A stretch of 64,000 bases of DNA from an uncultured bacterium (GTDB lineage: Bacteria > Omnitrophota > Omnitrophia > Omnitrophales > CAZLUT01). Both the position numbers and the translations under genes were made by a program. The first letter of the stretch is position 1; each line of letters opens with the position of its first letter. The notes beneath the pieces were generated by a model. It saw only the letters and a list, made by a program, of their open reading frames with translations. It had not been told where the DNA came from and ran no database searches. The stretch spans positions 1,172-65,171 of the forward strand of contig CAZLUT010000002.1 in the NCBI GenBank assembly GCA_964562805.1, written 5' to 3'. Of this stretch, positions 17,605-33,566 are shown piece after piece.

Positions 17605-17619
17605 TATTTTCTTAAATCC

Positions 17620-18378
17620 ATGAAAACGATTCTTATTATTCCGACTTATAATGAACGGAAAAATATTGAAGAACTGCTGAAAACTATCTGGGAGCATACA
17701 AAAGAATGTCCCGTGGAGGTTTTGGTGATTGATAGTGCCTCGCCAGATGGAACCGGTAAATTTTTAGATGAACTTAAAAGTAAAGATAAGAGAGTTCACG
17801 TTCTCCATCAAAGGAAGAAGCTTGGATTAGGACGGGCTTATATTGACGGTTTTCAGTGGGCTATTGGCCGGCGTAACGAATATCAGTATGTTTTTACGAT
17901 GGATGCGGACTTTTCGCATCATCCTCAGTATTTGAAATCTATGATCGAAGCTCTTAAGCAGTACGATTTGGTTATTGGATCCCGTTATGTAAAAGGCGGA
18001 GGTCTTTTGAATTGGCCTATAGTAAGGCGTTTTTTGAGTGCTTTTGCAAATTTTTATGCAAAAACAATCATTCAGCTGCCACTAAATGATGTAACCGCTG
18101 GATTTCATGGTTTTAGAATAGAGTTGCTTTCAAAAGTAATGAATTACGGTATTCAGGCGGATGGATATGCTTTTTTAATGGAACTAAAATTATTTTCTAT
18201 TTTTGAAGGAGCCCGTATCCATGAGCATCCCATTATTTTTAATGATCGTACTGAGGGCGATTCTAAGATTTCCAAACGGGTCATCTTCGAATCTATCTGT
18301 CTTACTTGGTGGCTCGGCCTTAAGCATTTAAACCGGCGTCTATTTCACAAAAAAAGCAAACCAATTAACCGTTCATAA
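17620..18378 (+). CDS. GT2 glycosyltransferase, polyprenol-phosphate sugar synthase-like (DPM1/ArnC-like)
   Basis: ILIIPTYNERKNIEEL, VLVIDSASPDGT and the DAD motif FTMDADFSHHP. Soluble, 252 aa. Confidence 0.75.
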   Translation: MKTILIIPTYNERKNIEELLKTIWEHTKECPVEVLVIDSASPDGTGKFLDELKSKDKRVHVLHQRKKLGLGRAYIDGFQWAIGRRNEYQYVFTMDADFSHHPQYLKSMIEALKQYDLVIGSRYVKGGGLLNWPIVRRFLSAFANFYAKTIIQLPLNDVTAGFHGFRIELLSKVMNYGIQADGYAFLMELKLFSIFEGARIHEHPIIFNDRTEGDSKISKRVIFESICLTWWLGLKHLNRRLFHKKSKPINRS

Positions 18379-19973
18379 TGCATCATTCTGCCATCAGCAA
18401 AACACTTTTGCTTTTGCTATTGGTTCTTATCTTGGCGTTGGGAGTCCAGCTGAGCCAAATCGACCGCCCGCTCACGGGGAATTTTGCTAGCTACCAGACA
18501 GTGTTGGCATCAATTGCGGACAACCTGGTTCGTGAGAACTTTTCGGGATTTTTATTACCTAAAACAAATTTAATTATATTGGGCGGTGAAAGATCATTAC
18601 ATTTAAATCAATATCCATTTCCGTCAGTATTGGCTGCTGCGGGGATGAGGGTTTTTGGTGGAAGTGTAGAAGTGTGGGGTCGCCTTCAGGCGGTACTGTT
18701 CAACTTATTAACCGCGCTACTTATTAGCTTTATTGGACGCCGGTTATTTTCTAAACGAACAGGCCTTGTGGCGGCGATTATTTATTTACTTTCACCCTTT
18801 GCTTTGATTTACGGGCAAAGTTTTATGTCGGAGGCAACCTCTCTTTTCTTTCTGGTTTTTGCTTTTTTTCTATTAATTCCCAGCAAGAATAGCAATTCAA
18901 GTATATTTCGAGCTATTCTATCGGCAATCTTTTTCTCTCTAACTGTTTGCGGCCGTCTCCACTTCATAGTATTTTTGCCGGCCTATCTTTTTTCCTTTTT
19001 TCTATTTGGTGACGAAAAGAAATATTCAAAAGCAATCTTGTATTTAATTTTTTCTTTGGCGGCACCCATCGCTTGGTATTCGCATACTTATTTTGCTGGT
19101 TCGACCGCAATTAATTTGCATACAAGCTTATTTCTTCAGTTGGGCGCATCAGGCGCAAGTAAAATTTCGCTATTGTTGAATCCTAGTTATTATAAGCAAA
19201 TTTTTGATACAGTTTCCGGGACGATGCTAACGCCGTTACTTTTCCCTTTCTTTTTCCTCGGGTTATTCTCTTTTAGGGACGAGAAAAAGCAGATCGGTTT
19301 GATCTTAGCAGTCTTATTTTTTGGATCTTCCATTTTTGTTTTAACTCCTCAGAAGGTAATGGATCATGATTTTTATCTATATGGCCTTTTCCCCTTTATT
19401 GCTCTGTTGGCGGCGCGTGGATTTTCACTTCTTATCGATTTATTTCCCGCTTTTAGAAAAGGAATAGTTATTTTACTCACCGTATTTTTATATTTTGTAA
19501 TTTCAGGACGGTATTTTTTTAATCCCATATTTAAATCAAGCTCTGGTGAAAAGCAGGAAGTTCAAATTGGAAAGTGGATTGAAAACAGCACGCGCTCGGG
19601 AGATAAAGTAGTTATGATTGGGAAAAATGCGCCAATTTTATTTTATTATGCTAAAAGACCTGCGTGGAATGTTTCTTTGGGTGAATCTCAAAGATTACCG
19701 GTTTATTTTGCGGGTAGGCCAGAACAGATTTTTGAAGCAGAAGAATTGAACCAGCTTAACGAGGCGATGCAAGATGATGTGAAATGGCTAGAGTACCTAA
19801 GGGGGCTGGGTGCGACTCATGTTGTTTTGGCGGAAAAAGGCTATTTAGAAAGATTTCCAACATTTAAAAATTACCTTTTAAAAAATCATAGGCAAATACA
19901 ATCAGAACATGCCGGTTTTTATTTTTTTGAGATTCAGAAAAACGAGATTTCTAGAAAAAAAGGTGAGACATAA
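18378..19973 (+). CDS. GT-C family membrane glycosyltransferase (ArnT/PMT-like), putative polyprenol-P-sugar-dependent transferase
   Basis: Roughly 11 TM helices with a C-terminal soluble domain. TAATG stop-start overlap with the upstream GT2. Confidence 0.55.
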   Translation: MHHSAISKTLLLLLLVLILALGVQLSQIDRPLTGNFASYQTVLASIADNLVRENFSGFLLPKTNLIILGGERSLHLNQYPFPSVLAAAGMRVFGGSVEVWGRLQAVLFNLLTALLISFIGRRLFSKRTGLVAAIIYLLSPFALIYGQSFMSEATSLFFLVFAFFLLIPSKNSNSSIFRAILSAIFFSLTVCGRLHFIVFLPAYLFSFFLFGDEKKYSKAILYLIFSLAAPIAWYSHTYFAGSTAINLHTSLFLQLGASGASKISLLLNPSYYKQIFDTVSGTMLTPLLFPFFFLGLFSFRDEKKQIGLILAVLFFGSSIFVLTPQKVMDHDFYLYGLFPFIALLAARGFSLLIDLFPAFRKGIVILLTVFLYFVISGRYFFNPIFKSSSGEKQEVQIGKWIENSTRSGDKVVMIGKNAPILFYYAKRPAWNVSLGESQRLPVYFAGRPEQIFEAEELNQLNEAMQDDVKWLEYLRGLGATHVVLAEKGYLERFPTFKNYLLKNHRQIQSEHAGFYFFEIQKNEISRKKGET

Positions 19974-19975
19974 AA

Positions 19976-21133
19976 GTGAAAAATAATAAGCGTATTCCTT
20001 ATTCTTGCCAATGGATTGATGAAAAAGATATTGAAGCGGTTGTGTCAGTTTTAAAATCAGATTTTATCACTCAAGGACCGAAAGTTGCTGAATTCGAGGA
20101 GAAGTTCGCTAAAAAGGTGGGTTCAAAATATGCCGTGGCTGTTGCGAATGGAACCGCGGGGCTTCATTTGGCGGCTTTGGCGCTTGATTTAAAAGAAGGT
20201 GATGAGGTAATCACGTCTCCTATTTCTTTTTTAGCGACGTCAAACGCGGCTTTTTATGTAGGCGCAAAACCTATTTTTGCAGACATTGATCCAAAGACCC
20301 TTTGCTTAGATGTAAAGCAAGTTAAAAAAAAGATCACTCCAAAAACAAAAGCAATTTTTCCAGTCCATTTTGCGGGCCAACCAGCCGCTTTGGAGGAGTT
20401 GTCTCAATTGTGCAAAAAACACGGTTTGTATATGGTTGAAGATGCCTGCCATGCTTTGGGAGCTCAGTATAAGCAGTCTATGGTTGGAGATTGTCAGTAT
20501 TCAAATATGGCCGTTTTTAGTTTTCATCCCGTTAAACATTTAGCAACAGGCGAGGGGGGAATGGTTACTACCAATAGCGAGAACTTGTATCAAAAGCTTT
20601 GTGATCTGCGGAGCCATGGAATGGTTCGAGATCGTGGAAGATTTGAATTAAATGATGAAGGGCCTTGGTGCTATGAAATGCAGTCTTTGGGGTTTAATTA
20701 TCGAATGACTGATATGCAGGCAGCTTTAGGTGTTTCTCAACTCGAGAAGATTGATATGTTTGTAAGTAAAAGGCGCGAGATTGCAAACCGGTATATCGAG
20801 GCATTTAAAGAATTAAAATTAGTCCGAGTTCCGGAATATATCAATGATACAGTTAATTCCCATCATTTATTTATAATTCAGCTCAATTTAAGAAATCTTA
20901 ATAAAACTCGAGCCGAAATTTTCGAAGCCTTAAAAAGCGAAGGTTTGGGGCTTCAAATTCATTATATTCCAATTCCAAGGCAGCCCTTTTATAAGAAAAA
21001 AGGGTACAACTACAAAGATTATCCGGTTGCTGAATCTTTTTATAAATCAACCATTTCAATACCGCTTTTTCCAAAGATGACCGAAGAAGAAGTGGATTAT
21101 GTTATTTCGATTGTTAAAAAGATTTTAAGCTAA
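19976..21133 (+). CDS. DegT/DnrJ/EryC1/StrS-family PLP sugar aminotransferase; with gmd possibly a GDP-perosamine synthase
   Basis: DFITQGPKVAEFEEKFAKKVGSKYAVAVANGTAGLHLA, FSFHPVKHLATGEGG carrying the PLP lysine, and NYRMTDMQAALG. GTG start. Confidence 0.8.
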   Translation: MKNNKRIPYSCQWIDEKDIEAVVSVLKSDFITQGPKVAEFEEKFAKKVGSKYAVAVANGTAGLHLAALALDLKEGDEVITSPISFLATSNAAFYVGAKPIFADIDPKTLCLDVKQVKKKITPKTKAIFPVHFAGQPAALEELSQLCKKHGLYMVEDACHALGAQYKQSMVGDCQYSNMAVFSFHPVKHLATGEGGMVTTNSENLYQKLCDLRSHGMVRDRGRFELNDEGPWCYEMQSLGFNYRMTDMQAALGVSQLEKIDMFVSKRREIANRYIEAFKELKLVRVPEYINDTVNSHHLFIIQLNLRNLNKTRAEIFEALKSEGLGLQIHYIPIPRQPFYKKKGYNYKDYPVAESFYKSTISIPLFPKMTEEEVDYVISIVKKILS

Positions 21134-21159
21134 AACCCTCAGTTTTTGGATGGTGTTGA

Positions 21160-21231
21160 ATATTATTGACTATTTTTGATTATTGTTGACATTATTTTAT
21201 TAAACACTTAAAATTTCCTGAATTTTAAGTG
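21160..21231 (+). promoter_or_regulatory. Sigma-70-like promoter with repeated TATTWTTGAY boxes and a perfect 11-bp inverted repeat overlapping the -10
   Basis: ATTATTGAC, CTATTTTTGAT and TTGTTGACA boxes. -35 TTGACA at 21185-21190, 17-bp spacer, -10 TAAAAT at 21208-21213. Palindrome CACTTAAAATT-TCCTG-AATTTTAAGTG at 21205-21231. Confidence 0.45.
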
Positions 21232-21350
21232 TTCAGCTGAGACTTTGGTTGTAGAAGAGATTTAAAATTACGATAAAGAATTTTGTTTTATACTATAATC
21301 AAAAGAGTTTTATTTGAGACAAGACTAATATAAAGTTGGGAGAATTTAAG

Positions 21351-22376
21351 ATGGCTGAGTCGAAGATTAATCAGGAAGAAACATCAGGCGGGCGAGTACT
21401 CAACTCGTCAATTCAAGCAGATCCTGATGTCCCTTTCCGGAAAAAATTTGGCCCCAAGTGGGATGAGTATCGACGTAATTGGGCAGCAGCCTCTCGAATG
21501 GAATACCGTCCTGATTTTCCTCTCTTTGTTCGCTTCGAGACTAAATTTCGCTGCAATCTTCACTGTAAAATGTGTGCGCATGGCCACCCGGATCTTGAGA
21601 AGGGGTATTCGTATGACGGTGAGCTTGATTTTGATACTTATTGCCGCTTGATTGATGAGTGTGCTGAGCATGGTTGTCCTTCAATTGGAATGAATCATGC
21701 CAACGAACCGCTTCTAGACAAAGATTTAATCGAGAGAATTAATTATGCGACTAAGCGTGGAATTATGGATATCCATATGAATACCAATGCAATGTTATTA
21801 ACTGCTGAAATGTCAAAAAAGCTTCTTGATACGGGGTTAACCAGACTTTGTTTTAGTGTGGATGCGCTAACTCCCGAGACTTTTAAAAAGATCCGGGTAG
21901 ATGCTGATTATGATCTCGTTATGTCGAATATTGACACTTTTTTAAATTTACGGGCCGAGCGAAGGCAGGATCTTCCGGTGACTCGGGTTAGCCTTGTTTT
22001 ACAGGAAGATAACAAGCACGAAGTAGATGCTTTTCGCGAGCATTGGGTCAAAAAAGTTGAGTATGTAGCGATTCAAAGGTATGTTCCCATAAGCCCATTT
22101 GATCAAGAAGAGGACGATATGCGCGCTCATGCAACGTCTTTTTCACCTAAAGAAGGCGCTCAAAAGTGTTCCTATGCCTGGGAATCTGTGTTTATCCATG
22201 GCGATGGAACTGTTTTGCCGTGTGCGGCACACAGAGCTCGAAAGATTGCCGTGGGCAATATACACAAAAACACAATTCATGAAATTTGGAATTCGCCCTC
22301 GATGGAAGAGTTGCGGATGAAGCATAAAACGGGGAATTTAGAAGGCTTAAAGCTTTGCCCGACATGCATTCAATAA
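21351..22376 (+). CDS. Radical SAM enzyme with a C-terminal SPASM/twitch-like Cys cluster
   Basis: CNLHCKMC (Cx3Cx2C). C-terminal cysteines CSYAWE...GTVLPCAAH...LKLCPTC. ATG at 21351 has a GGGAGA ribosome-binding site; the track starts at a TTG at 21336. Confidence 0.7.
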   Translation: MAESKINQEETSGGRVLNSSIQADPDVPFRKKFGPKWDEYRRNWAAASRMEYRPDFPLFVRFETKFRCNLHCKMCAHGHPDLEKGYSYDGELDFDTYCRLIDECAEHGCPSIGMNHANEPLLDKDLIERINYATKRGIMDIHMNTNAMLLTAEMSKKLLDTGLTRLCFSVDALTPETFKKIRVDADYDLVMSNIDTFLNLRAERRQDLPVTRVSLVLQEDNKHEVDAFREHWVKKVEYVAIQRYVPISPFDQEEDDMRAHATSFSPKEGAQKCSYAWESVFIHGDGTVLPCAAHRARKIAVGNIHKNTIHEIWNSPSMEELRMKHKTGNLEGLKLCPTCIQ

Positions 22377-22399
22377 ATTAACAATAGGATTTAAGTACG

Positions 22400-23716
22400 A
22401 TGTCAAAAAAGAAAAAACTTGTTTATGTTCCGATGGCGGTTGATTTTATTCATCCAGGACATTTGAATATTATTAAGGAGGCAGCCGAACTCGGCGAAGT
22501 AGTAGTAGGTCTTTTTACAGACAAAGCGATTGCTTCTTATAAGAGACTGCCTTTTATGAGTTATGACCAGCGAAAAGAAGTTATTGAAAATGTGAAAGGT
22601 GTTGATCGAGTTGTGACGCAAGAAACACCTGATTATGAAGTGAATCTCAGGAAATATAAACCAGACTACATGGTGCATGGTACGGATTGGAAAAAAGGCC
22701 CTCTCAAAGAAGTTCGAGCTAAAGCGATTGATATTTTGGCTGAATGGGGTGGCGAGATGGTTGAGCCTGAGTACACGAAGGGTATCTCTTCCACAGAAGT
22801 GCATGTGCATCTTCGAACGATTGGTACTACACCGCAATTGCGTTTAGCCAAACTTCGCCGTCTTTTGGAAGTAAAAAACATGGTCCGCGTTATGGAGGCT
22901 CATAATGGTTTGAGTGCTTTAATTGCGGAAAAAGCAGAGATTAAAGATCCCGGCAAGCCAATTGCCGCATTTGATGCAATTTGGTTAAGCAGCTTAACAG
23001 AGTCAACCGCCAAAGGTAGGCCGGATATTGAATTGGTCGACCTTTCTTCCCGATCGAAAACTATTAACGATATTTTTGAAGTCACCGTAAAACCGATGAT
23101 CTTTGACGGTGATACGGGAGGTATTCCGGAGCATTTTATTTATACGGTTCGCACGCTTGAACGTCTAGGGGTTTCGGCTGTGGTGATTGAAGATAAGACA
23201 GGCCTGAAAATGAATTCGCTTTTTGGTACTGATGTGAAACAGACTCAGGATTCTATTGAAGCTTTTTGTAATAAGATTTCGCTCGGAAAGAAAGCCCAAA
23301 TCACACCGGATTTTATGATTATTGCTCGAATCGAAAGCTTGATTCTTCAAAAAGGTATGGAAGACGCCCTCAAGCGAGCAGTAGCTTATATTGAGGCGGG
23401 CGCGGATGGTATTATGATTCATAGCCGATCAAAAACACCTGATGAAGTTTTGGCTTTTTGCGCTGAATACAAAAAATTCAAAAAGAAGGTACCGTTAGTA
23501 GTTATTCCGACAACATATGCCCAAGTTTCTGAAAAAGAATTAATTGACGCTGGAGTTAATGTGGTGATTTATGCCAACCATCTTCTTCGCGCAGCATACC
23601 CGGCAATGGTTAAAACGGCAGAATCTATTTTGCATCATGGCCGTTCAATGGAGGCGTCGAACGATTTTTGTATGCCAGTATCTGAGATGCTGGAGATTCT
23701 AGCTAATAAATACTAA
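22400..23716 (+). CDS. pepM: Fusion of a cytidylyltransferase (TagD-like HxGH) and phosphoenolpyruvate mutase
   Basis: N-terminal FIHPGHLNII...GISSTEVH, a TagD-like CTP-transferase pattern. The C-terminal domain has the isocitrate-lyase/PEP-mutase fold with the PEP-mutase-specific motif EDKTGLKMNS (EDKxxxxxNS). Confidence 0.8.
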   Translation: MSKKKKLVYVPMAVDFIHPGHLNIIKEAAELGEVVVGLFTDKAIASYKRLPFMSYDQRKEVIENVKGVDRVVTQETPDYEVNLRKYKPDYMVHGTDWKKGPLKEVRAKAIDILAEWGGEMVEPEYTKGISSTEVHVHLRTIGTTPQLRLAKLRRLLEVKNMVRVMEAHNGLSALIAEKAEIKDPGKPIAAFDAIWLSSLTESTAKGRPDIELVDLSSRSKTINDIFEVTVKPMIFDGDTGGIPEHFIYTVRTLERLGVSAVVIEDKTGLKMNSLFGTDVKQTQDSIEAFCNKISLGKKAQITPDFMIIARIESLILQKGMEDALKRAVAYIEAGADGIMIHSRSKTPDEVLAFCAEYKKFKKKVPLVVIPTTYAQVSEKELIDAGVNVVIYANHLLRAAYPAMVKTAESILHHGRSMEASNDFCMPVSEMLEILANKY

Positions 23717-23741
23717 CGCACCACCTTGTTAGGAAGTTTTT

Positions 23742-24881
23742 GTGTTAAATTGTGCTGATTTTTTTAGGGTCTTAACTCAAAAAGGCGTTCAATTTTATTG
23801 CGGTGTTCCTGATTCTTTGCTCAAATCCTTTTGTGCTTATTTATCTGACGCACTCCCTGAAGATAAAAATATAATTGCCGTTAATGAAGGAGCTGCGGTT
23901 GCGTTGGCTTCCGGAGTTTATATGGCGACAGGACAACCAGCCGTTGTTTATATGCAGAATTCGGGAGAAGGGAATGCAGCGAATCCTCTTCTCTCGCTTG
24001 CCGATTCCAAAGTATACAGTATCCCTATGTTGCTATTAGTGGGATGGCGTGGAGAGCCTGGAGTGAAGGATGAGCCACAGCATATTAAGCAGGGAGAGGT
24101 TACTTTAGCGCTTTTAGATGCGATGGGTATTCGGTATGAGATACTTCCATCTGATGTAAAATTGGCCGAAGCGGCTATCCAGAGAGCTTTTGAATATATG
24201 AATTTGAAGAAAGCTCCTTATGCCCTAATTATTCGTAAGGACACTTTTGAGCCTTACGCTTCTACTGCGACACGCGCCGAAAATAACTACTCACTTAGCC
24301 GTGAAGATGCGATACAAGAAATTATTCAATTTACAAAAAACATGCAAAATCAGCCCGCTTTTGTATCCACTACCGGAATGACTTCTCGAGAACTTTTTGA
24401 AAACCGAGCCAAGAATAGAGAATCGTTAAGCTCTGATTTTCTTACGGTAGGCTCAATGGGTCACGCATCTTCGATTGCCTTAGGACTTGCATTAAATTTA
24501 CCCAATCGGGATGTTTTTTGTGTTGATGGAGATGGTGCTATGCTGATGCATATGGGGAGCTTAGCGACCATTGGCAGCTCCGGTGTTAAGAATTTTAAAC
24601 ATATCCTGATTAATAACGGAGCACATGACTCCGTAGGCGGTCAGCCTACTTGCGGGTTTAAAGTCAATTTCCGAGAGATTGCCAAGGCTTGTGGTTACAC
24701 CAATACTTGGTTAGCAACGAATAAGGATGAATTAAAAGAATGTTTGAAGCAAATGGTTACAAAAGAAGATTTAGAGCTTTTGGAAATTCGAGTAAAAAAA
24801 GGAGCTAGGAAAGATTTGGGTCGCCCCACTTCCTCGCCAGGAGAGAATAAAATTCAATTTATGGAATATTTAAAAGGTTAA
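23742..24881 (+). CDS. ppd: Phosphonopyruvate decarboxylase (TPP-dependent)
   Basis: N-terminal GVQFYCGVPDSLLKSF. TPP-binding motif GDGAMLMHMGSLATIG...NNGAHDSVGGQ. Size roughly 379 aa, immediately downstream of pepM. GTG start. Confidence 0.8.
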   Translation: MLNCADFFRVLTQKGVQFYCGVPDSLLKSFCAYLSDALPEDKNIIAVNEGAAVALASGVYMATGQPAVVYMQNSGEGNAANPLLSLADSKVYSIPMLLLVGWRGEPGVKDEPQHIKQGEVTLALLDAMGIRYEILPSDVKLAEAAIQRAFEYMNLKKAPYALIIRKDTFEPYASTATRAENNYSLSREDAIQEIIQFTKNMQNQPAFVSTTGMTSRELFENRAKNRESLSSDFLTVGSMGHASSIALGLALNLPNRDVFCVDGDGAMLMHMGSLATIGSSGVKNFKHILINNGAHDSVGGQPTCGFKVNFREIAKACGYTNTWLATNKDELKECLKQMVTKEDLELLEIRVKKGARKDLGRPTSSPGENKIQFMEYLKG

Positions 24882-24886
24882 GATCG

Positions 24887-25603
24887 ATGATAAATGTAAT
24901 TGCTATAGATGGTCCTTCATATGTTGGTAAAAGCACAGTAGCTCGTTCGTTGGCTGCCTTATTGGGTTATGACTTTATTAATACTGGCCATATGTTTCGC
25001 GTGGTCGCACGAGAATGTCTTTTAAGAAATCTTTCTGTAAAGAAGGAAGGTGAGGTTGCAGATCTGGCGCATTGTCTTGATATTCAGTTTGAAAGTAATG
25101 AAAAAGGCAACTCGAGAACTCTGGTTAACGGTGAAGATTTAACCGAAGCTTTAGAGGGGCATGAGATTATGCTTTTAGCTGCCAAAGTGGCTCAGATTGG
25201 AAAGTTGCGGGATATTTTAACTGAGAAGCAGCGCTTGTATGCCGACAAAAAGATGATTGTCATGGAGGGCCGAGACATTGGCTCAATTGTTTTTCCTGAT
25301 GCAAAGTGGAAATTTTTTATTACAGCTTCGATGGAAATTCGTGCTAAGCGAATGTATAAAATTATGAATGAAGCTGAGAAGAAGAATTGCTCTGATTACC
25401 ATACGTTGATTCCAAAGCTAGAAGAGATTGATGAGGCCGACCGCAATCGCAAGATTTCGCCGCTTAGAATCGCCGATGATGCAATTATTTATGATAATTC
25501 TGACAGTCCTAGTGAACATGAAGATTCGTTGATTTTAAAATACTACATTACACACACGGACGAGATTGTTAAAAATACAGAAATTCTGAAGTTTAAAAAA
25601 TAA
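24887..25603 (+). CDS. cmk: Cytidylate kinase
   Basis: IAIDGPSYVGKSTVARSLA P-loop, GRDIGSIVFPDAKWKFFITAS and RDRNRKISPLRIADDA align closely with canonical Cmk. Confidence 0.75.
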   Translation: MINVIAIDGPSYVGKSTVARSLAALLGYDFINTGHMFRVVARECLLRNLSVKKEGEVADLAHCLDIQFESNEKGNSRTLVNGEDLTEALEGHEIMLLAAKVAQIGKLRDILTEKQRLYADKKMIVMEGRDIGSIVFPDAKWKFFITASMEIRAKRMYKIMNEAEKKNCSDYHTLIPKLEEIDEADRNRKISPLRIADDAIIYDNSDSPSEHEDSLILKYYITHTDEIVKNTEILKFKK

Positions 25604-25613
25604 GGAAAGATTC

Positions 25614-26480
25614 ATGGAAACTATTAAAGAGCTTAAAGTGATCTGTCAAACAACAGCGCAAAAAGACATTTCAAATGTTTATATGCGCTATATTTGCCGT
25701 CCGATTTCAATTCGTATCACACGCTTTCTTATTCCAACAGCAGTCACTCCGGACCAAGTTAGCTTTGCGATGATTGTTACGGGTGTTATTGCGAGCCTTA
25801 TATTTTTAATAGCGCATCCTATAAGTTTTTTCCTGGCAGCGCTCCTTCTTCAGTTTTGGTATATTTTAGATTGTGTCGATGGAGAATTGGCTCGTTATCG
25901 CTCCTATTCCAAAAATAAAGAAGTGATCCAGGATAAGGCTACTTTGCCGATAACGGGTGCTTATTGGGATTATCTCAATCATTACATTGTTCACGGGCTT
26001 GTACCGCTTACGATTTCTTACGGATTGTTTCTTAAGACACAAAATTCGTTTTGGATTTTACTCGGATTTGTCACCTCGACTTTCCAAGTGATGTTGCTTG
26101 CTATTCACGATACGCAATGCCGCGCCTATCTAACTAAAATCCGGAAAACACTTCCGACTCATGTATTGAATGTTAAATCGGCGTCGGAAGTGGATGAGGC
26201 TGCGCCAGAAAAAAAGAAAATGAAAGGAATAATGTTTTTGAAGCTGCCATTTGTGACCGTCCATTATCTTTCGACTTATCCTTCGGTGATGAATGTGATA
26301 ACTGTGCTTGCTCTTACGTCGTGCTTAACAGGATTTGGGAGTGATTTTAGAGGTTTCTTTCTTTGGTTTTATGCGTTGGGATCAGGTGTTGTTTTTTTAG
26401 GTTTAGCTTATAAGCTGCTCCATGACCGTGGTCTCGATAAGGAATTTGATAAAGAATTTTATTTAGAAAAACGCACCTAA
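25614..26480 (+). CDS. CDP-alcohol phosphatidyltransferase-family membrane protein
   Basis: Polytopic membrane protein with the DxxDGxxAR start of the CDP-OH phosphotransferase motif (LDCVDGELARYRS). Confidence 0.55.
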   Translation: METIKELKVICQTTAQKDISNVYMRYICRPISIRITRFLIPTAVTPDQVSFAMIVTGVIASLIFLIAHPISFFLAALLLQFWYILDCVDGELARYRSYSKNKEVIQDKATLPITGAYWDYLNHYIVHGLVPLTISYGLFLKTQNSFWILLGFVTSTFQVMLLAIHDTQCRAYLTKIRKTLPTHVLNVKSASEVDEAAPEKKKMKGIMFLKLPFVTVHYLSTYPSVMNVITVLALTSCLTGFGSDFRGFFLWFYALGSGVVFLGLAYKLLHDRGLDKEFDKEFYLEKRT

Positions 26481-26533
26481 GATGAATTTAAAATTTCCGC
26501 CACCATCAAAAAACCAATCTCCTTTTCTTTTGC

Positions 26534-27574
26534 GTGAAAAATAAAAAAATAAAATCAATTAACTGCCTTTTTTTGTTGGATGCTGGTCCAGGAATAGGGA
26601 TGGGACACTTGAGGAGATGTCTTGTTTTGGCCGAAAAGCTGAAGCAAAAAGGTGTTAAAAATATATGTTTTGCAACTAAAACGCCGAATGATATTTCAGT
26701 TTTGGTTGGAGCAAAATTCCCAATTATTCATTTGCCTTCTACTGACAGTCTAAAAAATAGAACCGATCTTTTGCAGTCAAAAATAAAAGATTACCGGACA
26801 AAACTTATTATTGTGGATAGTTACAAGATAGCGGTCAATTCACTTCGAGCGATAGAGAAGAGAATAGCACCTGTAATTGTGTTAGATGATTATTTGCACT
26901 TATCTCATTATCCGGTTTCCGGAATTATTAACTACAACCTTGGCGCTGAAAAGCGTACTTATAAATGTGAGTCAGAAACCAGATTGTTTCTTGGAGCGAA
27001 ATACGCCCTTATTTCCGGAGAATTTATCAAAGAAAAAAAGTCAGCTCGGGTTCAAGGGATAGGGCGTCGGTTATTTGTGTCTTTAGGCGCAAATCCAGCG
27101 GGAAGCTTGCTCAAAAAAACGCTTAAAGCGATTGGGAACATAGAAGAAAATCTGAAGATTTCTTTGGTTTTGAGTCCTTGTTATCCGAATAGAGATAAGT
27201 ATAAAAGCGGCAAGGTTTCTCTGGTTGCTCCGAACGCTATCGCCCGGGCAATGAAGCGGTGCGACTTTGCCTTAAGTGCTGCCGGGGTTACAAGTTATGA
27301 GCTTGTATTTATGAGGATTCCAACGCTATTGTTTGTATTAGCTCGGAACCAAAGCCGAGTTGCAGAAGAAATGCAGCGTTGTGGCGCGGCTAAAAATTTA
27401 GGTTGGTTAAAAACTATTTCAACTAGTAAACTAACAGTTGAAATCAGCAATTTTGTGAATAGTAAAATGAAAGTGGCTGGCAAAAAAGTTACTAAGTTTA
27501 ATAAGATTGACGGTAAGGGTTCAGATCGTCTCGCTAGTTTTATTATTTCTGAATATTTGAGGGGGAAAAAGTGA
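26534..27574 (+). CDS. pseG: PseG-like UDP-sugar hydrolase (GT28-like; pseudaminic acid pathway)
   Basis: IGMGHLRRCLVLAEK matches the PseG/SpsG G-x-G-H-x-x-R motif. By-eye alignment with C. jejuni PseG along the length (LIIVDSYKIA, GAKYALISGEF, FVSLGANP). GTG start. Confidence 0.65.
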   Translation: MKNKKIKSINCLFLLDAGPGIGMGHLRRCLVLAEKLKQKGVKNICFATKTPNDISVLVGAKFPIIHLPSTDSLKNRTDLLQSKIKDYRTKLIIVDSYKIAVNSLRAIEKRIAPVIVLDDYLHLSHYPVSGIINYNLGAEKRTYKCESETRLFLGAKYALISGEFIKEKKSARVQGIGRRLFVSLGANPAGSLLKKTLKAIGNIEENLKISLVLSPCYPNRDKYKSGKVSLVAPNAIARAMKRCDFALSAAGVTSYELVFMRIPTLLFVLARNQSRVAEEMQRCGAAKNLGWLKTISTSKLTVEISNFVNSKMKVAGKKVTKFNKIDGKGSDRLASFIISEYLRGKK

Positions 27575-28305
27575 AGATTGTTGCTACTATCGAAGCGAGG
27601 ATGGGTTCCAGCCGGCTTCCTGGAAAGATTCTTAAAAATATTTTGGATAAGCCGACTCTAGAGCTGCTCGTTGAGCGGGTTAGAAAATCAAAGCACATTG
27701 AGCAGGTGGTTGTAGCCACTACGGTTGATCCGAGTGACAACATCACCGAAGAAAATTGCCGCAAGATCGGTATTGATTGTTTCCGAGGAAGCTCCGAAGA
27801 TGTTTTGAATAGAGTGCTTCAAACAGCCAAAGCATATCAGGCTGATTTAATCGTAGAATTAACAGGCGACTGCCCGCTTTTAGATCCAGAAATTATTGAT
27901 AGTGTTATCGAAAAGTATCTTAGCGGTTCATTTGATTATGTAAGCAATGTTTTGGAAAGAACTTATCCGAGAGGCTTGGATACCCAGGTTTTTTCAACGG
28001 CTGTTTTAGAGAAAGTGTCTCAAATCACTCAGGATCCGGCTGACAGAGAAAACGTTTCGCTTTATATCTATGAAAACCCCGAGCAATTTAAGCTAGGGAA
28101 CGTTAAAGCTTCCTCGGAGCATAACAGGCCGGATTTAAGATTAACCGTTGATACGGTTGAGGATTTTAAATTAATTAGTTCGATCTATAATGAGTTGTAT
28201 CCAAAAAACAAAGACTTTAATTTGTCGGATGTGATTAAGCTTTTAAATCAAAAGCCTGAACTCAGCAAGCTTAACGCGGATGTTCAGCAGAAGAAAGCAA
28301 GATGA
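27571..28305 (+). CDS. pseF: CMP-nonulosonic acid synthetase (acylneuraminate cytidylyltransferase family; PseF/SpsF-like)
   Basis: KIVATIEARMGSSRLPGKILKNI and VVVATT. Size 244 aa. GTG start after a GAGGGGGA ribosome-binding site. Confidence 0.7.
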   Translation: MKIVATIEARMGSSRLPGKILKNILDKPTLELLVERVRKSKHIEQVVVATTVDPSDNITEENCRKIGIDCFRGSSEDVLNRVLQTAKAYQADLIVELTGDCPLLDPEIIDSVIEKYLSGSFDYVSNVLERTYPRGLDTQVFSTAVLEKVSQITQDPADRENVSLYIYENPEQFKLGNVKASSEHNRPDLRLTVDTVEDFKLISSIYNELYPKNKDFNLSDVIKLLNQKPELSKLNADVQQKKAR

Positions 28306-29348
28306 GTGGAGTTGATAAAAAATCAAAAAAACTAAGAGCCGGCATCGTTGGATGCGGTCGAATTGCAAGTACGTTTGATTCGGATCCTAAGCGGAAGAAT
28401 ATTGCTACTCATGCCGGTGCTTATACAGCGTCACCTGGTGTTGACTTGGTAGCGGCATGTGATCTCGATGAGAAAAAAGTGGCAGCCTTTGGCGAGCGCT
28501 GGAAGGTTAAAAATTTATATACCAACTTTAATAAAATGCTTAAAAGTGAGAAGTTGGATATTCTAAGTCTCTGCACTTGGGCTGGATCTCACTTTCAATT
28601 GGCAAAAACTGCGATTAATAGCGGCGTAAAAGCGGTGTTTTGTGAGAAGCCTATAACAGTTTCTTTGAGTGAGGCGGATCAGCTGATTAAATTAGCCAAA
28701 CGCAAAAAAGTTGTATTTGCGGTTAATCACTCGAGGAGATGGGATTCAGGTCTTCAAAAAATAAAGTCTGCGATTAATCAGGGTAAGTTGGGTGAAATTC
28801 GCCAGGTGAGCTGTTATTACACTGCTGGCATTTCAAACACTGGAACTCACTTATTTGACTTATTAAATTTTTTCTTTGGTGATGCGAAACAGGTAATTGG
28901 CGCTGTTAGCAATTTAGTTGATAAAAAGGGTGCTGATCCAACTGTTTCAGGATTAATAGAGTATAAGAGCGGAACGTTGGTTTCTGTTCAGGGATTGAAT
29001 GTGAATGATTATTTAATTTTTGAGATAGATATTTATGGCTCGAAAGGAAGGATTCGCATTTGTAATAGCGGTTTTAAATCTCAGGTCTGGAAAGTTTTGC
29101 CAAGTGATTATTTTTCAGGCTACAAAGAGCTTAAAGAGGTAAAGTCATCTTTCGATTTATCCAAAAAAGAACAGATGAAAAACGCCGTCAAAGATATAAT
29201 GCAATGCATAAAAACAAAAAAGAAACCGTCCTCAAGCGCTAAGGATGGCATGAAAGCACTGGAGCTTATTTGCGCCATGAAGCTCTCATGCAAAAAAGGG
29301 ACCAAAGTAGATTTGCCGCTTAAAAATAGAAATATTACAACGGAGTAA
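28302..29348 (+). CDS. Gfo/Idh/MocA-family NAD(P)-dependent sugar oxidoreductase
   Basis: LRAGIVGCGRIAS Rossmann N-terminus and EKP motif CEKPIT. ATGA overlap with the upstream gene. Confidence 0.75.
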   Translation: MSGVDKKSKKLRAGIVGCGRIASTFDSDPKRKNIATHAGAYTASPGVDLVAACDLDEKKVAAFGERWKVKNLYTNFNKMLKSEKLDILSLCTWAGSHFQLAKTAINSGVKAVFCEKPITVSLSEADQLIKLAKRKKVVFAVNHSRRWDSGLQKIKSAINQGKLGEIRQVSCYYTAGISNTGTHLFDLLNFFFGDAKQVIGAVSNLVDKKGADPTVSGLIEYKSGTLVSVQGLNVNDYLIFEIDIYGSKGRIRICNSGFKSQVWKVLPSDYFSGYKELKEVKSSFDLSKKEQMKNAVKDIMQCIKTKKKPSSSAKDGMKALELICAMKLSCKKGTKVDLPLKNRNITTE

Positions 29349-29351
29349 AAG

Positions 29352-30590
29352 ATGACTGATCCAATCAGAACAAAGCCATTCCCCCAACACCCCACTTTTG
29401 ATGAAGAGGCAAAGCGTGGAGTTCTTGATGTGTTGTCATCGGGCGTGCTTTCCGGATTTGTAGCTAATTCGGGGCCTAATTTTTTAGGTGGTCCGAAAGT
29501 CAAGGAATTAGAAGCAGCTTTCTGCGATTATTTTGGCGTAAAATATGCGATGACCGTTAATTCTGCAACGGCGGGGCTGCACGCTGCGGTTGCTGCGTGT
29601 GGCATTGGGCCGGGGGATGAGGTGATCGTGCCTCCTTATACGATGTCAGCTTCCGCGAGTGCGGTATTGATGCAGAGTGCTGTGCCGCTGTTTGCAGACA
29701 TTCAAGATGATATCTATTGCGTTGATCCAAAATCTATTGAAGAGAGAATTACATCTCGAACCAAAGCTATTATTGTGGTTCATTTATTTGGGCATCCGGC
29801 AGACATGGACTCTATTTCAAAAATCGCCAAAAAACACGGCTTAAAAATTATTGAGGACTGTGCTCAGGCTCCCGGGGTCAAATATAAAAATAAATTTGTC
29901 GGAACCATCGGTGATATTGGAGTTTTTAGCTTCAATCAGCATAAAACTATTACAACGGGTGAAGGCGGCGTTGTTATTACCAACAGTGAAGAAGCTGCTT
30001 TAAAAGTGCGCCTAGTTCGTAATCATGGCGAAGCCGTTTTGGAAAACATGGAAATAAATGATTATTCAAACACTCTCGGCTGGAATTATCGAATGACCGA
30101 GCTGGAGGCGGCCGTTGGCATTACTCAATTTAAGAAGCTCGACACCCTAACGAAACACAAACAAGAGTTGGCGAATGTTCTAAATGAAAAGCTTAAGAAA
30201 TTTGAAGAGTTAAGTTTGCCGGTAGCACTGGATGGATGTAGTCATGGCTATTTTGTATATCCAATGAAGTGGCGCGCATCTAAAACAGGTCTGTCGCGCG
30301 ATCAAATAGTCGAAGCTTTAAATAAGGAGGGAATCCCTTTTGGCAAAGGCTATGTTCGGCCTCTTTATCTTTTGCCGCTTTTTCAAAAGCAGATATGTTT
30401 TGGCAGTAACGGCTGGCCTTTTACATCAATACCTGAGAAGGAGAGGCAGAAATATAAAAAAGGACTTTGTCCTGTTGCTGAGAGGATGTACGAAAAGGAG
30501 CTTATGCTGACAGGTGTTTGTTATTGGCCGGTTACGAAAGAAGATATCATGGATGTTGTAAAGGCATTCGAGAAGATATTAAAAAAATGA
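29352..30590 (+). CDS. pseC: DegT-family PLP aminotransferase, PseC-like (UDP-4-keto-6-deoxy-sugar aminotransferase)
   Basis: FCDYFGVKYAMTVNSATAGLHAA, FSFNQHKTITTGEGG and NYRMTELEAAVG. Confidence 0.75.
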   Translation: MTDPIRTKPFPQHPTFDEEAKRGVLDVLSSGVLSGFVANSGPNFLGGPKVKELEAAFCDYFGVKYAMTVNSATAGLHAAVAACGIGPGDEVIVPPYTMSASASAVLMQSAVPLFADIQDDIYCVDPKSIEERITSRTKAIIVVHLFGHPADMDSISKIAKKHGLKIIEDCAQAPGVKYKNKFVGTIGDIGVFSFNQHKTITTGEGGVVITNSEEAALKVRLVRNHGEAVLENMEINDYSNTLGWNYRMTELEAAVGITQFKKLDTLTKHKQELANVLNEKLKKFEELSLPVALDGCSHGYFVYPMKWRASKTGLSRDQIVEALNKEGIPFGKGYVRPLYLLPLFQKQICFGSNGWPFTSIPEKERQKYKKGLCPVAERMYEKELMLTGVCYWPVTKEDIMDVVKAFEKILKK

Positions 30591-31651
30591 AAAGAAAAAA
30601 ACAGATTAAAATCAATAATAAGCCGATAGGTGATGGGGCACCCGTTTTTGTCATAGCGGAAGCCGGTTCTAATCACAATGGAAGTCTAAGGCAAGCAAAG
30701 AAACTTATTGATATTGCTGCTAAGGCGGGGGCGGACGCAGTTAAGTTTCAGACGTTTTCTGCAGATAAATTGTATTCGAAAAAAACCCCGATGATGAGTT
30801 ATCTCAGAAAAAACAAGCTGGTAAAGAAAAAAGAAACGGTTTGGGATCTTCTAAAAAAACTTGAAATTCCGAGAGTTTGGCATTCCGAATTAGCTAAGTA
30901 TTGCCGTTTAAAAAAAATATTTTTTCTTTCGACTCCATTTGATCTAAAGGCTGTTGATCAATTGGAAGCGGTTAATATGGCTGCTTATAAAATCGCCTCA
31001 TATGAAATAACCCATCTTCCTCTCTTGGAGAAAGTTGCAAAAACAGGGAAGCCGATTATTCTGTCGACCGGCATGGCAGATTTGGATGATATTAGGGTTG
31101 CATTAAAAACTATATATAGAACAGGAAATAAAAAAGTTGTTCTTTTGCATTGCGCTATCAACTACCCACCCAAATTTGAAGATCTTCATTTAAAAGCGAT
31201 GCAGACGATAAGGAACGAATTTAAGGTGCCCGTTGGTTTTTCAGATCATACGATGGGACTGACATCCGATGTTGCTGCTGTTGCTTTAGGGGCATGCGTA
31301 ATTGAAAAACATTATACGATTAGCCGGAAGCTCGAAGGCCCTGACCATTCTTTTTCATTGGAGCCTGACGAATTAAAAAACATGATCCAAGGTATCCGCG
31401 ACACCGAACGTGCTTTGGGCCTACCAATTAAACGAGCGACAAAAGCGGAAAAGGAAATGTATCGTCTTGGCCGGAGAAGTTTGGTTGCGGCCTGCAGCAT
31501 TCCAAAGGGAGCCAAAATATCTCGTAGGATGATCGAAGTAAAAAGACCGGGCTTTGGAATTCCAACCAAAGATATGAATCAAGTTATTGGCCGGCTAGCA
31601 TCTCGGGATATCGAAACAGACGATATTCTTTCGTGGAAGATGATTCGGTAA
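30587..31651 (+). CDS. pseI: Nonulosonic acid synthase (NeuB/PseI family) with a C-terminal SAF domain
   Basis: IGDGAPVFVIAEAGSNHNGSLRQAKKLIDIAAKAGADAVKFQTF. ATGA overlap start at 30587; the track's 30518 start lies inside the upstream gene. Confidence 0.85.
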   Translation: MKRKKQIKINNKPIGDGAPVFVIAEAGSNHNGSLRQAKKLIDIAAKAGADAVKFQTFSADKLYSKKTPMMSYLRKNKLVKKKETVWDLLKKLEIPRVWHSELAKYCRLKKIFFLSTPFDLKAVDQLEAVNMAAYKIASYEITHLPLLEKVAKTGKPIILSTGMADLDDIRVALKTIYRTGNKKVVLLHCAINYPPKFEDLHLKAMQTIRNEFKVPVGFSDHTMGLTSDVAAVALGACVIEKHYTISRKLEGPDHSFSLEPDELKNMIQGIRDTERALGLPIKRATKAEKEMYRLGRRSLVAACSIPKGAKISRRMIEVKRPGFGIPTKDMNQVIGRLASRDIETDDILSWKMIR

Positions 31652-31750
31652 TTTAACCGACGTCTCTTTGTTGCTGTCGGCTGGTTTTTAGGTAACAGAT
31701 TAATCAAAATCATAAATATATTGGTTTTTAAAGATTTATTTTGATAAGAC

Positions 31751-31790
31751 TTGACTATTATTGACAACTATAAGCTATTTTTGATAAGAT
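31751..31790 (+). promoter_or_regulatory. Second copy of the TTGACTATT(A/T)TTGA promoter box pair upstream of the HTH-pseB sub-operon
   Basis: TTGACTATTATTGACAACTATAAGCTATTTTTGATAAGAT. Its first 13 nt match 21166-21178 at 12 of 13 positions, and the CTATTTTTGAT box is shared. Confidence 0.4.
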
Positions 31791-31839
31791 TTATACGGTC
31801 TCAAAAATAACATAAGAGAATATAGAGGGTTAGTATTAT

Positions 31840-32100
31840 ATGGATGAAATCAAAGAAAATGCTGTTTATACGCCAGCAGAAACTCAAAAAATTTTAAAAA
31901 TCAGTGCAAGCACCATGACTCGCCTCATTAAAAAAGGATTGATTCATGCGGCCAAAATAGGGGGGCAATACCGCATTTTAGGTAAAGAAATTTTAAGAGC
32001 GATGTCGCCAAAATTGGAAGATAAAGTAGGAAAAATATACAACAAAGGCCGGCAATGGGTTCATGAAGACGATGATCCAAACAGAAAGGTCAAAAAATGA
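31840..32100 (+). CDS. Small excisionase-family/MerR-like helix-turn-helix DNA-binding protein
   Basis: TPAETQKILKISASTMTRLIKKGLIHAAKIGGQYRI matches the HTH_17/excisionase pattern. Size 86 aa. Its stop overlaps the pseB start as ATGA. Confidence 0.55.
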   Translation: MDEIKENAVYTPAETQKILKISASTMTRLIKKGLIHAAKIGGQYRILGKEILRAMSPKLEDKVGKIYNKGRQWVHEDDDPNRKVKK

Positions 32101-33558: not shown

Positions 33559-33566
33559 ATAATGCC

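Follow-up and report, generated by a model that had tools for sequence, protein, structure and literature searches.

What does a cell make of phosphonoacetaldehyde when none of the enzymes known to act on it next is encoded nearby? This question is raised by a 64,000-nucleotide stretch of DNA from an uncultured Omnitrophota bacterium (assembly GCA_964562805.1, contig CAZLUT010000002.1, positions 1,172 to 65,171 of the forward strand; hereafter the window), in which a cytidylyltransferase-phosphoenolpyruvate (PEP) mutase fusion and a phosphonopyruvate decarboxylase (Ppd) lie inside a surface-polysaccharide locus. The usual third enzyme of the pathway is missing and a conserved radical S-adenosylmethionine (rSAM) enzyme is encoded in its place, so the cell-surface phosphonate is probably not a standard one. 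We assign a probability of roughly 0.55 to the reading that the block at 21351-26480 encodes a radical-SAM-dependent variant of cytidine monophosphate (CMP)-activated phosphonyl tailoring, set in a pseudaminic-acid-type polysaccharide locus. The block is operon-like, with internal gaps of 5-25 nt and flanking gaps of 217 nt and 146 nt, and consists of five genes:

21351-22376, + strand: radical-SAM/SPASM (twitch-like) enzyme, partner of the fusion and Ppd (PF04055 + PF13186)
22400-23716, + strand: bifunctional Fom1-type cytidylyltransferase (CyTase, aa 1-140) and PEP mutase (aa 150-438), 438 aa (Pfam, NCBIfam and PDB matches)
23742-24881, + strand: phosphonopyruvate decarboxylase, thiamine pyrophosphate (TPP)-dependent, 379 aa (TIGR03297, PF02776 + PF02775)
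24887-25603, + strand: cytidylate (CMP) kinase paralog (Cmk), part of a NUDIX-Cmk-CDPOH module (TIGR00017)
25614-26480, + strand: divergent CDP-alcohol-phosphotransferase-like membrane protein (CDPOH), proposed phosphonyl transferase (PF01066)

The phosphonate core

Both core open reading frames (ORFs) lie exactly where the original prediction, a reading of the letters alone, had placed them, and ppd starts 26 nt past the stop of the fusion gene, ppm. Pfam scans divide the fusion into a PF01467 CTP_transf_like domain (aa 15-134, 57.2 bits) and a PF13714 PEP_mutase domain (aa 152-411). The claimed HxGH cytidylyltransferase signature is present in the first of these as HPGH (aa 18-21, nt 22451-22462), together with ISST, of the ISxT type, at aa 129-132. 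The claim that the second is a true PEP mutase (PepM, or Ppm) is borne out by the NCBIfam equivalog TIGR02320, which scores 403.7 bits against a cutoff of 319.55, while the sister models are much weaker (phosphonopyruvate hydrolase 163.6, methylisocitrate lyase 109.7 and CPEP mutase 41.9 bits). The same domain matches PDB 5UNC at E=1e-47, and its EDKTGLKMNS (aa 264-273, nt 23189-23218) fits the EDKxxxxxNS motif that separates Ppm from the remaining PF13714 proteins (Rice et al., 2019, PMC6697681). The 379-aa protein is likewise a Ppd by its TIGR03297 score (492.9 bits, cutoff 312.5), with the sulfopyruvate decarboxylase models at 120.2 (beta) and 80.7 bits (alpha), and it carries a GDGA...NN TPP-binding box at aa 263-297 (GDGAMLMHMGSLATIGSSGVKNFKHILINNG).

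A comparison of both proteins with PEP mutase and Ppd profiles had been proposed as a check, and both pass the equivalog cutoffs. Given these scores and the EDKxxxxxNS motif, a pairing of some other isocitrate-lyase-family C-domain with a sulfopyruvate decarboxylase is a practically negligible alternative. Family membership thus supports the predicted route in which the PepM domain converts PEP to phosphonopyruvate and Ppd converts phosphonopyruvate to phosphonoacetaldehyde.

The N-terminal domain aligns over aa 5-139 with the crystal structure of the Fom1 CyTase (5X3D, E=1.3e-48). Fom1 cytidylylates 2-hydroxyethylphosphonate (HEP), and the rSAM enzyme Fom3 uses CMP-HEP as its substrate. The name PntC, by comparison, is kept for LicC-like PF12804 enzymes specific for 2-aminoethylphosphonate (AEP; Rice et al., 2019, PMC6697681). 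The Pfam scan found no PF12804 domain on the fusion; because its domain is PF01467, we class it as Fom1-type and not PntC-type. CMP activation by the fused domain had been predicted by analogy with both systems: the Fom1 half of that analogy stands and the PntC half does not.

None of this is unusual in itself. PF01467-Ppm fusions make up 23.6% of non-redundant Ppm proteins, and a protein search with the fusion scored at least 8,000 candidates, every one at E <= 1e-20. Surface decoration is the purpose of most phosphonate clusters. The core exists as predicted, and a CyTase-PepM fusion with a Ppd inside a glycan locus is a familiar kind of system with a common architecture.

The missing third enzyme

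Four families are known to act at the branch point after Ppd: AEPT (PF00266), the iron-dependent alcohol dehydrogenase (Fe-ADH) PhpC (PF00465), the Aldedh enzyme PhnY (PF00171) and the HMGL-like RhiG (PF00682); in about 13% of ppm neighbourhoods, not one of the known branch-point enzymes is encoded (Li and Horsman, 2022, PMC8942020). Our Pfam scans took in ORFs of at least 120 aa at 413-56447, minus a few nested antisense ORFs and 52935-53339, with five ORFs at 60133-63491 left outside the family scans. Within this scope they returned none of the four families. Nor did an Fe-ADH turn up when all six frames of the window were searched by tblastn with four Fe-ADH queries, or when three ORFs within 56671-60050 were compared with the PDB. 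No class-V aminotransferase was found by the Pfam scans or by whole-window tblastn with a single divergent Aminotran_5 domain query (from locus L016). With no branch-point family in the neighbourhood, the locus is "post-Ppd other" by the criteria of Li and Horsman.

The original prediction had reported no iron-ADH-type phosphonoacetaldehyde reductase and no AEP transaminase, and both absences are upheld by these searches. Its description of the transaminase as class III needs correction, since PhnW/AEPT enzymes belong to class V (PF00266; PMC8942020). It had fixed no head group, which is consistent with the lack of a branch-point family in the scanned part of the window.

Three genes were considered as replacements and rejected. 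A GFO/IDH/MocA oxidoreductase (28302-29348) might be the lost reductase and a second DegT aminotransferase (DegT2, 29352-30590) the lost transaminase. The set of CTP_transf_3, GFO, DegT and NeuB genes also occurs in the Ppm-free loci L042, L043 and L055, and we therefore ascribe GFO and DegT2 to the sugar pathway and not to the phosphonate pathway. The only class-I/II aminotransferase (class I, 57648-58910) is housekeeping, with lipoyl synthase on one side of it and an AmiC-like amidase on the other.

These genes bear on the chief competing account, a plainer one in which phosphonoacetaldehyde is handled by an unlinked or generic enzyme, the decoration is ordinary HEP or AEP, and the rSAM enzyme tailors the nonulosonic acid or its CMP form. 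Generic aminotransferases are indeed available in the window (PseC, DegT2 and the class-I enzyme), while the occurrence of GFO and DegT2 in the same order in Ppm-free loci argues against their being phosphonate enzymes. Taking this together with the linkage and family evidence below, we consider ordinary HEP or AEP decoration unlikely.

A radical-SAM gene linked to the fusion

The rSAM gene ends 24 nt before the fusion, outside the range covered by the original prediction, which does not mention it. A mechanical ORF call begins at TTG 21336; the length of an identical database protein (P0121, 341 aa) fits translation from ATG 21351. The CxxxCxxC motif lies at nt 21552-21575 (C73, C77, C80), and the homolog alignment shows four further invariant cysteines (C278, C296, C341, C344), enough for one auxiliary cluster. 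The Pfam scan found no B12 domain. The AF2 model has a pLDDT of 91, and the nearest solved sequence relative is BtrN (4e-18, in the twitch region), followed by MoaA, GDGT-MAS, SkfB, BlsE and DesII. Against BtrN, MoaA, BlsE, DesII and viperin, which share the twitch/SPASM type and have small molecules or nucleotides as substrates, identity is 15-23%, and the window protein differs from them in a conserved N-terminal extension of about 60 aa.

A genome scan with the rSAM homolog alignment found 25 loci at 54-87% identity. They belong to Smithella/Syntrophaceae and other deltaproteobacterial metagenome-assembled genomes (MAGs), Planctomycetaceae, Oscillospiraceae, Mucispirillum, Helicobacter (H. 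pullorum, H. turcicus) and Campylobacter (C. jejuni GB55, C. troglodytis, C. aviculae, C. estrildidarum, Ca. C. infans). Two of the 25 contigs end right after the gene; among the 23 informative loci, the rSAM gene has a CyTase-Ppm fusion next after it on the same strand in 22, and Ppd is also adjacent in 21. The same rSAM-Ppm-Ppd trio, hereafter the cassette, occurs in two metagenome loci whose fusion (P0003) is 81% identical to that of the window.

The cassette stands among pseudaminic-acid (Pse) or aminosugar genes in the window and in the C. jejuni, C. troglodytis and Helicobacter loci, which would suit an rSAM enzyme that tailors the sugar under ordinary HEP or AEP decoration. Many rSAM-linked loci, on the other hand, have no sugar-pathway genes within 10 kb. 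Such loci include those of the 82-87% identical orthologs in Smithella/Syntrophaceae MAGs, and also L002; all keep rSAM, Ppm and Ppd together, which speaks for a phosphonate role of the rSAM enzyme. By themselves, the 82-87% identical relatives would suggest a Smithella-like syntroph as the source of the window.

The distribution of Fe-ADH points the same way. A six-frame search found no Fe-ADH in any rSAM-linked locus, whereas all five rSAM-free control fusions sampled (64-68% identity; L038, L039, L040, L053 and L054) are followed in order by Ppd and Fe-ADH. The controls were taken from lineages in which no rSAM homolog turned up, and one has fragmented gene calls; near them lie Glyphos_transf, PF01066 or sulfatase-type transferases. 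The loss of Fe-ADH from every rSAM-linked locus, set against its presence in every sampled rSAM-free sister, argues against the ordinary HEP or AEP account.

In a simple neighbour-joining tree of 139 fusions, built without support values and with an Fe-ADH-linked sequence as its root, a single clade of 35 contains all 24 rSAM-linked fusions. This clade is set apart by six positions, five of them in the CyTase domain (P11, A13, F39, L102 and A109); the remaining fusions have G, S, L, Q and V there, and Fom1 carries this HEP-type set. The close similarity of the CyTase domain to the HEP-specific Fom1 domain favours a plain HEP product, and the clade-specific changes, including the polar-to-apolar S13A and Q102L, disfavour it. 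What goes beyond the routine in this locus is that a conserved rSAM gene replaces the Fe-ADH/AEPT step, that it marks a single fusion clade with an altered CyTase, and that the cassette recurs near nonulosonic-acid genes.

Several rSAM-linked loci show further features of their own. NTP_transf_3-aminotransferase fusions adjoin the cassette in Mucispirillum (class V; L016:1130-2974) and in Helicobacter (class I/II; L021 and L024, f36, at about 15.0-16.8 kb), so some lineages may make an amino-phosphonate activated by a second nucleotidyltransferase. In L022 (2-1483 and 2570-4400), which is epsilonproteobacterium-like and binned as Rhodocyclaceae, a DUF2972 protein lies directly upstream of the rSAM gene, and no Ppd stands between the fusion and an adenylylsulfate (APS) kinase. 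A phage-type integrase directly upstream of the cassette in Ca. Campylobacter infans (L018:8612-9679) hints at a mobile island; a viral-contig scan found no copies of the cassette.

Proposed pathway

On family membership, the Fom1-type domain would convert CTP and a phosphonate to a CMP-phosphonate, and Cmk would convert CMP to CDP. Between phosphonoacetaldehyde and the finished head group, we suggest that the rSAM/SPASM enzyme stands in for the Fe-ADH that follows Ppd in the sister clusters and sets the head group, which would therefore not be plain HEP. It probably acts on a cytidylylated intermediate, as Fom3 does on CMP-HEP. With the CMP-phosphonate as donor, CDPOH would then attach the phosphonyl group to a hydroxyl on a glycan or on a lipid-linked sugar, freeing CMP that Cmk may recycle. 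The surrounding genes encode a pseudaminic-acid-containing glycan, which is the likely target.

A more specific version is doubtful and we offer it tentatively: the rSAM/SPASM enzyme may be an eighth, oxygen-independent branch-point enzyme that turns CMP-linked phosphonoacetaldehyde or HEP into an undescribed head group, to be installed on a pseudaminic-acid-type sugar. The product would be a phosphonylated nonulosonic acid at the cell surface of anaerobes, Campylobacter and Helicobacter.

A proposed Cmk-CDPOH transfer module

The last two genes of the block fall within the 22400-26480 range of the original prediction and had been left without interpretation there. Cmk scores 195.4 bits with TIGR00017 (cutoff 135.55) and matches E. 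coli Cmk (1KDO) over its full length (E=4e-35, aa 4-209). CDPOH has at least four hydrophobic segments and a marginal PF01066 match (22.6 bits against 22, aa 45-97 only). The canonical PF01066 signature is D1xxD2G1xxAR...G2xxxD3xxxD4; CDPOH has the form D1xxD2GxxAR...GxxxD3xxxH, made up of DCVDGELAR (nt 25869-25895) and GAYWDYLNH (nt 25956-25982).

Metagenome homologs of CDPOH (42-57% identity) nearly always follow a NUDIX and a Cmk gene, often with one or two methyltransferases, a GT2 and a PMT_2 GT-C glycosyltransferase. Cmk (45-59% identity) directly precedes the CDPOH homolog in seven of the eight metagenome loci with upstream sequence, and stands two genes upstream in L046. The window has a displaced module member:

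43758-44288, + strand: NUDIX hydrolase, NudE/YffH-like (PF00293; NudE 82.5 bits)

It is 53-62% identical to the NUDIX genes directly before Cmk in L041-L049. Relatives of the window's methyltransferase, GT2 and PMT_2 genes also lie by CDPOH in these loci (MT330 at 26-40%; GT2a at 44-55% in L046 and L049; PMT2 at 23-38% in L046, L048 and L049). A second methyltransferase, MT231 (43059-43754), was rejected as an ortholog of the module methyltransferase, its similarity being generic.

The module recurs in L041-L051 with one of three supply sets or with none: CyTase-Ppm, Ppd and rSAM; Ppm-NTP_transf_3, Ppd and another rSAM; or a PPDK-like kinase, Peptidase_C26 and NTP_transf_3. The second set is that of L046: here the module stands with a Ppm of another kind, carrying an NTP_transf_3 fusion, with a Ppd and with an rSAM/SPASM gene that is unrelated to the window gene and, at 21% identity, was rejected as its ortholog. 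The third occurs in L048 and L049, where a trio of PPDK_N/PEP-utilizers (779 aa), Peptidase_C26 and NTP_transf_3 genes is followed by Cmk and not by an APS-kinase homolog (L048:3072-6774). We take these three to be the domains of Cj1418, Cj1417 and Cj1416, respectively. Since the module is mostly Ppm-free, we rejected Cmk and CDPOH as phosphonate-specific genes. Judged from gene neighbourhoods, Cmk-CDPOH may be a separate, general module that installs cytidylyl-activated phosphorus head groups, with the phosphonate trio as one supply set. The proposed transferase role of CDPOH draws support from canonical PF01066 proteins that occur with the rSAM cassette elsewhere, in five loci of Smithella-like type and four from Campylobacter, and from one that lies beside the HEP-type fusion of L053.

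The acceptor could instead be diacylglycerol or another lipid alcohol, making the product a phosphonolipid. Lipids are the classical acceptors of PF01066 enzymes. A large Burkholderiales_CDP-OH ppm family has been predicted to make phosphonolipids (PMC8942020). Downstream of the trio in the Smithella/Syntrophaceae MAG loci L004, L006, L009, L011 and L013 are two FabH-like genes, a methyltransferase, an SDR, a canonical PF01066 (CDP-OH) transferase, a CyTase domain that stands alone and a membrane protein of small size, and these loci could have a lipid-type product. In the window, on the other hand, the block lies between pseC and pseG, with Wzx, Wzy, Wza-like and Wzc-like proteins and many glycosyltransferases encoded in the same locus; the CDPOH subfamily is found alongside nonulosonic-acid genes and GT2 and PMT_2 lipid-linked sugar transferases; and the CDPOH signature departs from the usual one, having His in the position of the fourth Asp, a residue that the Campylobacter and Smithella-locus PF01066 homologs keep. 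For the window, we give a phosphonolipid little credence and continue to favour transfer to a glycan.

The wider rSAM family and the weight of contrary evidence

A word-index search had suggested that the rSAM enzyme belongs to a small, discrete family. This was overturned by an exhaustive profile search: at E<=1e-30 it returned 4,680 representatives. Above 540 bits there are only two 50%-identity representatives, and a continuous series follows from 404 bits down. Five distant contexts were sampled (L055, L056, L057, L058 and the P0181 contig). The order in L055 is NeuB, CTP_transf_3, GFO, DegT, GNAT, a 628-aa unknown, rSAM and Wzx. In L056, CTP_transf_3 lies between two rSAM genes, with LicD genes. 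L057 has rSAM, a LIC12162-family protein, a methyltransferase, two B12-rSAM genes and a PseB-like gene, its contig ending just upstream of the rSAM gene. A fourth context has NeuB, CTP_transf_3, a methyltransferase and rSAM, and a fifth GT4, rSAM and a PseB-like gene.

Some members are fused to their partners. In the CTP_transf_3-rSAM fusion P0342, the N-terminal half aligns with the window CTP_transf_3 protein over the full length of the latter (E=1e-25), and P0229 is another fusion protein of the family. The NCBIfam "spiro-SPASM" model gives weak matches to both the rSAM and the CTP_transf_3 proteins of the window. In nonulosonic-acid loci, this rSAM/SPASM family of about 340 aa adjoins SpsF-like CTP_transf_3 genes, sometimes with B12-rSAM pairs and methyltransferases. 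From these sequences we conclude that cytidylyltransferases are the partners of the entire family and that the Ppm-linked group is predicted to be a derived branch. Because the family travels with, or is fused to, cytidylyltransferases, the substrate of the rSAM enzyme may well carry a CMP handle.

The same survey supplies the first of several points that weigh against radical-SAM-dependent phosphonyl tailoring. Ppm is absent from the surroundings of all five sampled relatives (32-47% identity), which stand in nonulosonic-acid loci with NeuB, CTP_transf_3 or PseB-like genes, so the window rSAM enzyme could instead tailor the sugar; these contexts and the CTP_transf_3-rSAM fusions count in favour of the ordinary HEP or AEP account. 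A fold search with the rSAM protein gave generic SPASM/twitch matches and assigned no reaction. A BtrN-like enzyme cannot reduce an aldehyde, so that an unlinked reductase must supply HEP if HEP is needed. The linkage also has exceptions: the 82%-identical ortholog in L012 has no adjacent Ppm, the L022 locus has no Ppd, and aminotransferase fusions are present in some rSAM-linked loci (Aminotran_5 in L016, Aminotran_1_2 in L021 and L024). The single clade, as noted, comes from a tree without support values. Finally, CDPOH has His in place of the canonical fourth Asp in 11 of 11 subfamily sequences; Ppm and Ppd accompany the module in one of seven flanked loci (L046), which indicates that Cmk and CDPOH are not phosphonate-specific; and L042, L043 and L045 amount to the window's sugar locus without any phosphonate genes.

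Comparison with known systems

One close parallel to the CyTase-PepM/rSAM arrangement is the fosfomycin (fom) system of Streptomyces. In Fom1, as in the window, a PF01467 CyTase is N-terminal to PepM, an rSAM gene lies beside the fusion, and the fom rSAM enzyme uses a CMP-linked phosphonate. Fom3, however, is a B12-dependent class B methyltransferase, whereas the window enzyme is of the SPASM/twitch type without a B12 domain. The window also differs in having no FomC-type Fe-ADH, in five CyTase substitutions relative to Fom1, and in being a glycan locus instead of an antibiotic cluster. A diffusible, fosfomycin-like small-molecule phosphonate, with the CMP handle removed last, would account for the resemblance to the fom cluster and for the NUDIX hydrolase present in the window and in L002. 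The rSAM enzyme without a B12 domain, a search that found no FomC, FomD, Fom4, resistance or export genes, and the embedding of the cassette in glycan loci of several phyla make such a product very improbable.

The HEP-type surface clusters that served as controls share with the window the fusion architecture (64-68%), Ppd and glycan- or teichoic-type neighbours. They differ in having Fe-ADH and no rSAM gene, where the window clade has rSAM and no Fe-ADH.

Another close match is Campylobacter gene cluster family (GCF) 385, in which ppm-ppd is flanked by radical SAM and adenylylsulfate kinase genes and which was left unclassified as "post-Ppd other" (Li and Horsman, 2022, PMC8942020). As in the window, a ppm-ppd core stands by an rSAM and a kinase gene with no known branch-point enzyme. 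The Campylobacter/Helicobacter cassettes have the same gene order, with rSAM proteins 54-58% and fusions 58-61% identical to those of the window. After ppd, however, the kinase is of the APS type there and of the Cmk type in the window. By six-frame tblastn, APS_kinase is present in 11 loci of epsilonproteobacteria and Mucispirillum and absent from the window; ORF clustering raises the number to 12 by adding L019. The GCF 385 loci also have methyltransferases, sometimes a CysQ-like phosphatase, and a PF01066 protein that keeps the fourth Asp. The window locus matches and widens this group, for which our literature search found no characterising paper; nor did it find one on this rSAM enzyme or on a phosphonate-modified pseudaminic acid. 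The "phosphonate" flagellin glycans named in one review were set aside, as they appear at least partly to be the C. difficile type A structure, a phosphodiester (its reference 27 is a C. difficile flagellin paper).

Two further systems are alike in principle. The Pnt pathway (Rice et al., 2019, PMC6697681) shares Ppm, Ppd, cytidylyl activation and transfer to a surface glycan, and differs in its LicC-like, AEP-specific PF12804 PntC accompanied by AEPT, where the window has PF01467 and no AEPT was found. The O-methyl phosphoramidate (MeOPN) pathway of C. jejuni (Cj1415-Cj1422) resembles the window in that its phosphorus head group is cytidylyl-activated, and in having a small P-loop kinase dedicated to it as well as methyltransferases and a transferase. 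There, Cj1415 with Cj1416-Cj1418 makes CDP-phosphoramidate 3'-phosphate, and the MeOPN transferases are Cj1421 and Cj1422. The bond is P-N as opposed to C-P, and Cj1415 is an APS-kinase homolog making a 3'-phosphate, as against a bona fide Cmk-like kinase in the window.

The window and 24 related loci give one ppm group without a branch-point enzyme a defined candidate, an rSAM enzyme that excludes Fe-ADH, marks a single CyTase-Ppm clade and comes from a family working beside cytidylyltransferases. Strains that can be cultivated carry the cassette (C. jejuni GB55, H. pullorum NCTC 12824, C. troglodytis and others), which makes the hypothesis directly testable. Should the head group prove new, phosphonate biosynthesis would gain radical-SAM chemistry that involves no B12 domain, and a new surface epitope would be added to pathogens in which the glycans of flagellin and capsule are important for colonisation and vaccines. 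Found with phosphonate supply genes, with phosphoramidate-like ones or with none, the NUDIX-Cmk-CDPOH set may serve generally to couple cytidylyl-activated phosphorus head groups to glycans.

The surrounding sugar locus

The phosphonate block sits between pseC and pseG, and the features around it are as follows:

15489-16481, + strand: methyltransferase (Pfam)
16624-17604, + strand: GDP-mannose 4,6-dehydratase (Pfam)
17620-18378, + strand: GT2 glycosyltransferase (Pfam)
18378-19973, + strand: PMT_2 GT-C glycosyltransferase (Pfam)
19976-21133, + strand: PseC aminotransferase (TIGR03588, 516.5 bits, cutoff 423.5)
21186-21214, + strand: promoter-like site TTGACA-17-TAAAAT in the 217-nt pseC-rSAM gap
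26627-27574, + strand: PseG-like hydrolase (TIGR03590, 178.7 bits, cutoff 153.55)
27571-28305, + strand: SpsF-like CTP_transf_3 cytidylyltransferase (PseF model 31.7 bits, below the cutoff of 205.7)
28302-29348, + strand: GFO/IDH/MocA oxidoreductase
29352-30590, + strand: second DegT aminotransferase (DegT2)
30587-31651, + strand: NeuB-family synthase (NeuB_NnaB 412.6 bits, cutoff 399.65; PseI 338.7 bits, just below the cutoff of 340.25)
32097-33095, + strand: PseB (TIGR03589, 528.1 bits, cutoff 407.75)
33058-33558 and 33567-34118, + strand: two GNATs (Pfam)
34179-35312, + strand: WbuX-type amidotransferase (TIGR03573, 350.1 bits, cutoff 203.2)
35383-37260, + strand: conserved 625-aa protein, 36-40% identical to ORFs in the same place in L042, L043 and L045
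37253-38722, + strand: Wzx flippase (Pfam)

The wider window adds Wzy, Wza-like and Wzc-like genes, YfhO and many glycosyltransferases. The position of the block between pseC and pseG, in the company of Wzx, Wzy and glycosyltransferases, agrees with the surface-glycan context, as opposed to an antibiotic cluster, that the original prediction had favoured.

PseB, PseC and PseG pass their equivalog cutoffs, and PseH (47 bits, cutoff 93.1), PseI and PseF do not. The nonulosonic acid is predicted to be Pse-like and may not be plain pseudaminic acid, since the synthase passes NeuB_NnaB and just misses PseI, and the CMP-sugar synthetase is SpsF-like. The gene set from PseG to NeuB also occurs, at 56-73% identity, in L042 and L043 without Ppm.

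The promoter-like site matches the consensus at 11 of 12 positions and is the best match in a scan of 15000-34500; it is a consensus match only, and the scan overall was not enriched over shuffles. The GC content of the trio is 0.42 and that of the window 0.396, so the trio is not clearly foreign. No tRNA genes and no Rfam matches were found in the window.

After a 188-nt gap, the NeuB-family gene is followed by a small HTH_17 (excisionase/MerR-like) gene (31840-32100), which precedes pseB. The WbuX amidotransferase is present without the HisH/HisF-like partners known from L045. A HAMP-GGDEF protein (2401-3765) and a PilZ-domain protein (12211-12594) flank the export genes (Wzy, Poly_export and Wzz/Wzc-like), which suggests control of the exopolysaccharide locus by cyclic di-GMP. 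Membrane proteins that modify lipid-linked glycans are dense in the window (YfhO, two PMT_2, DUF2079 and LPG_synthase_TM; 13126-15570, 18378-19973, 45855-47576, 49259-50212 and 50209-52053), and given this density several periplasmic decoration routes may act in a single locus.

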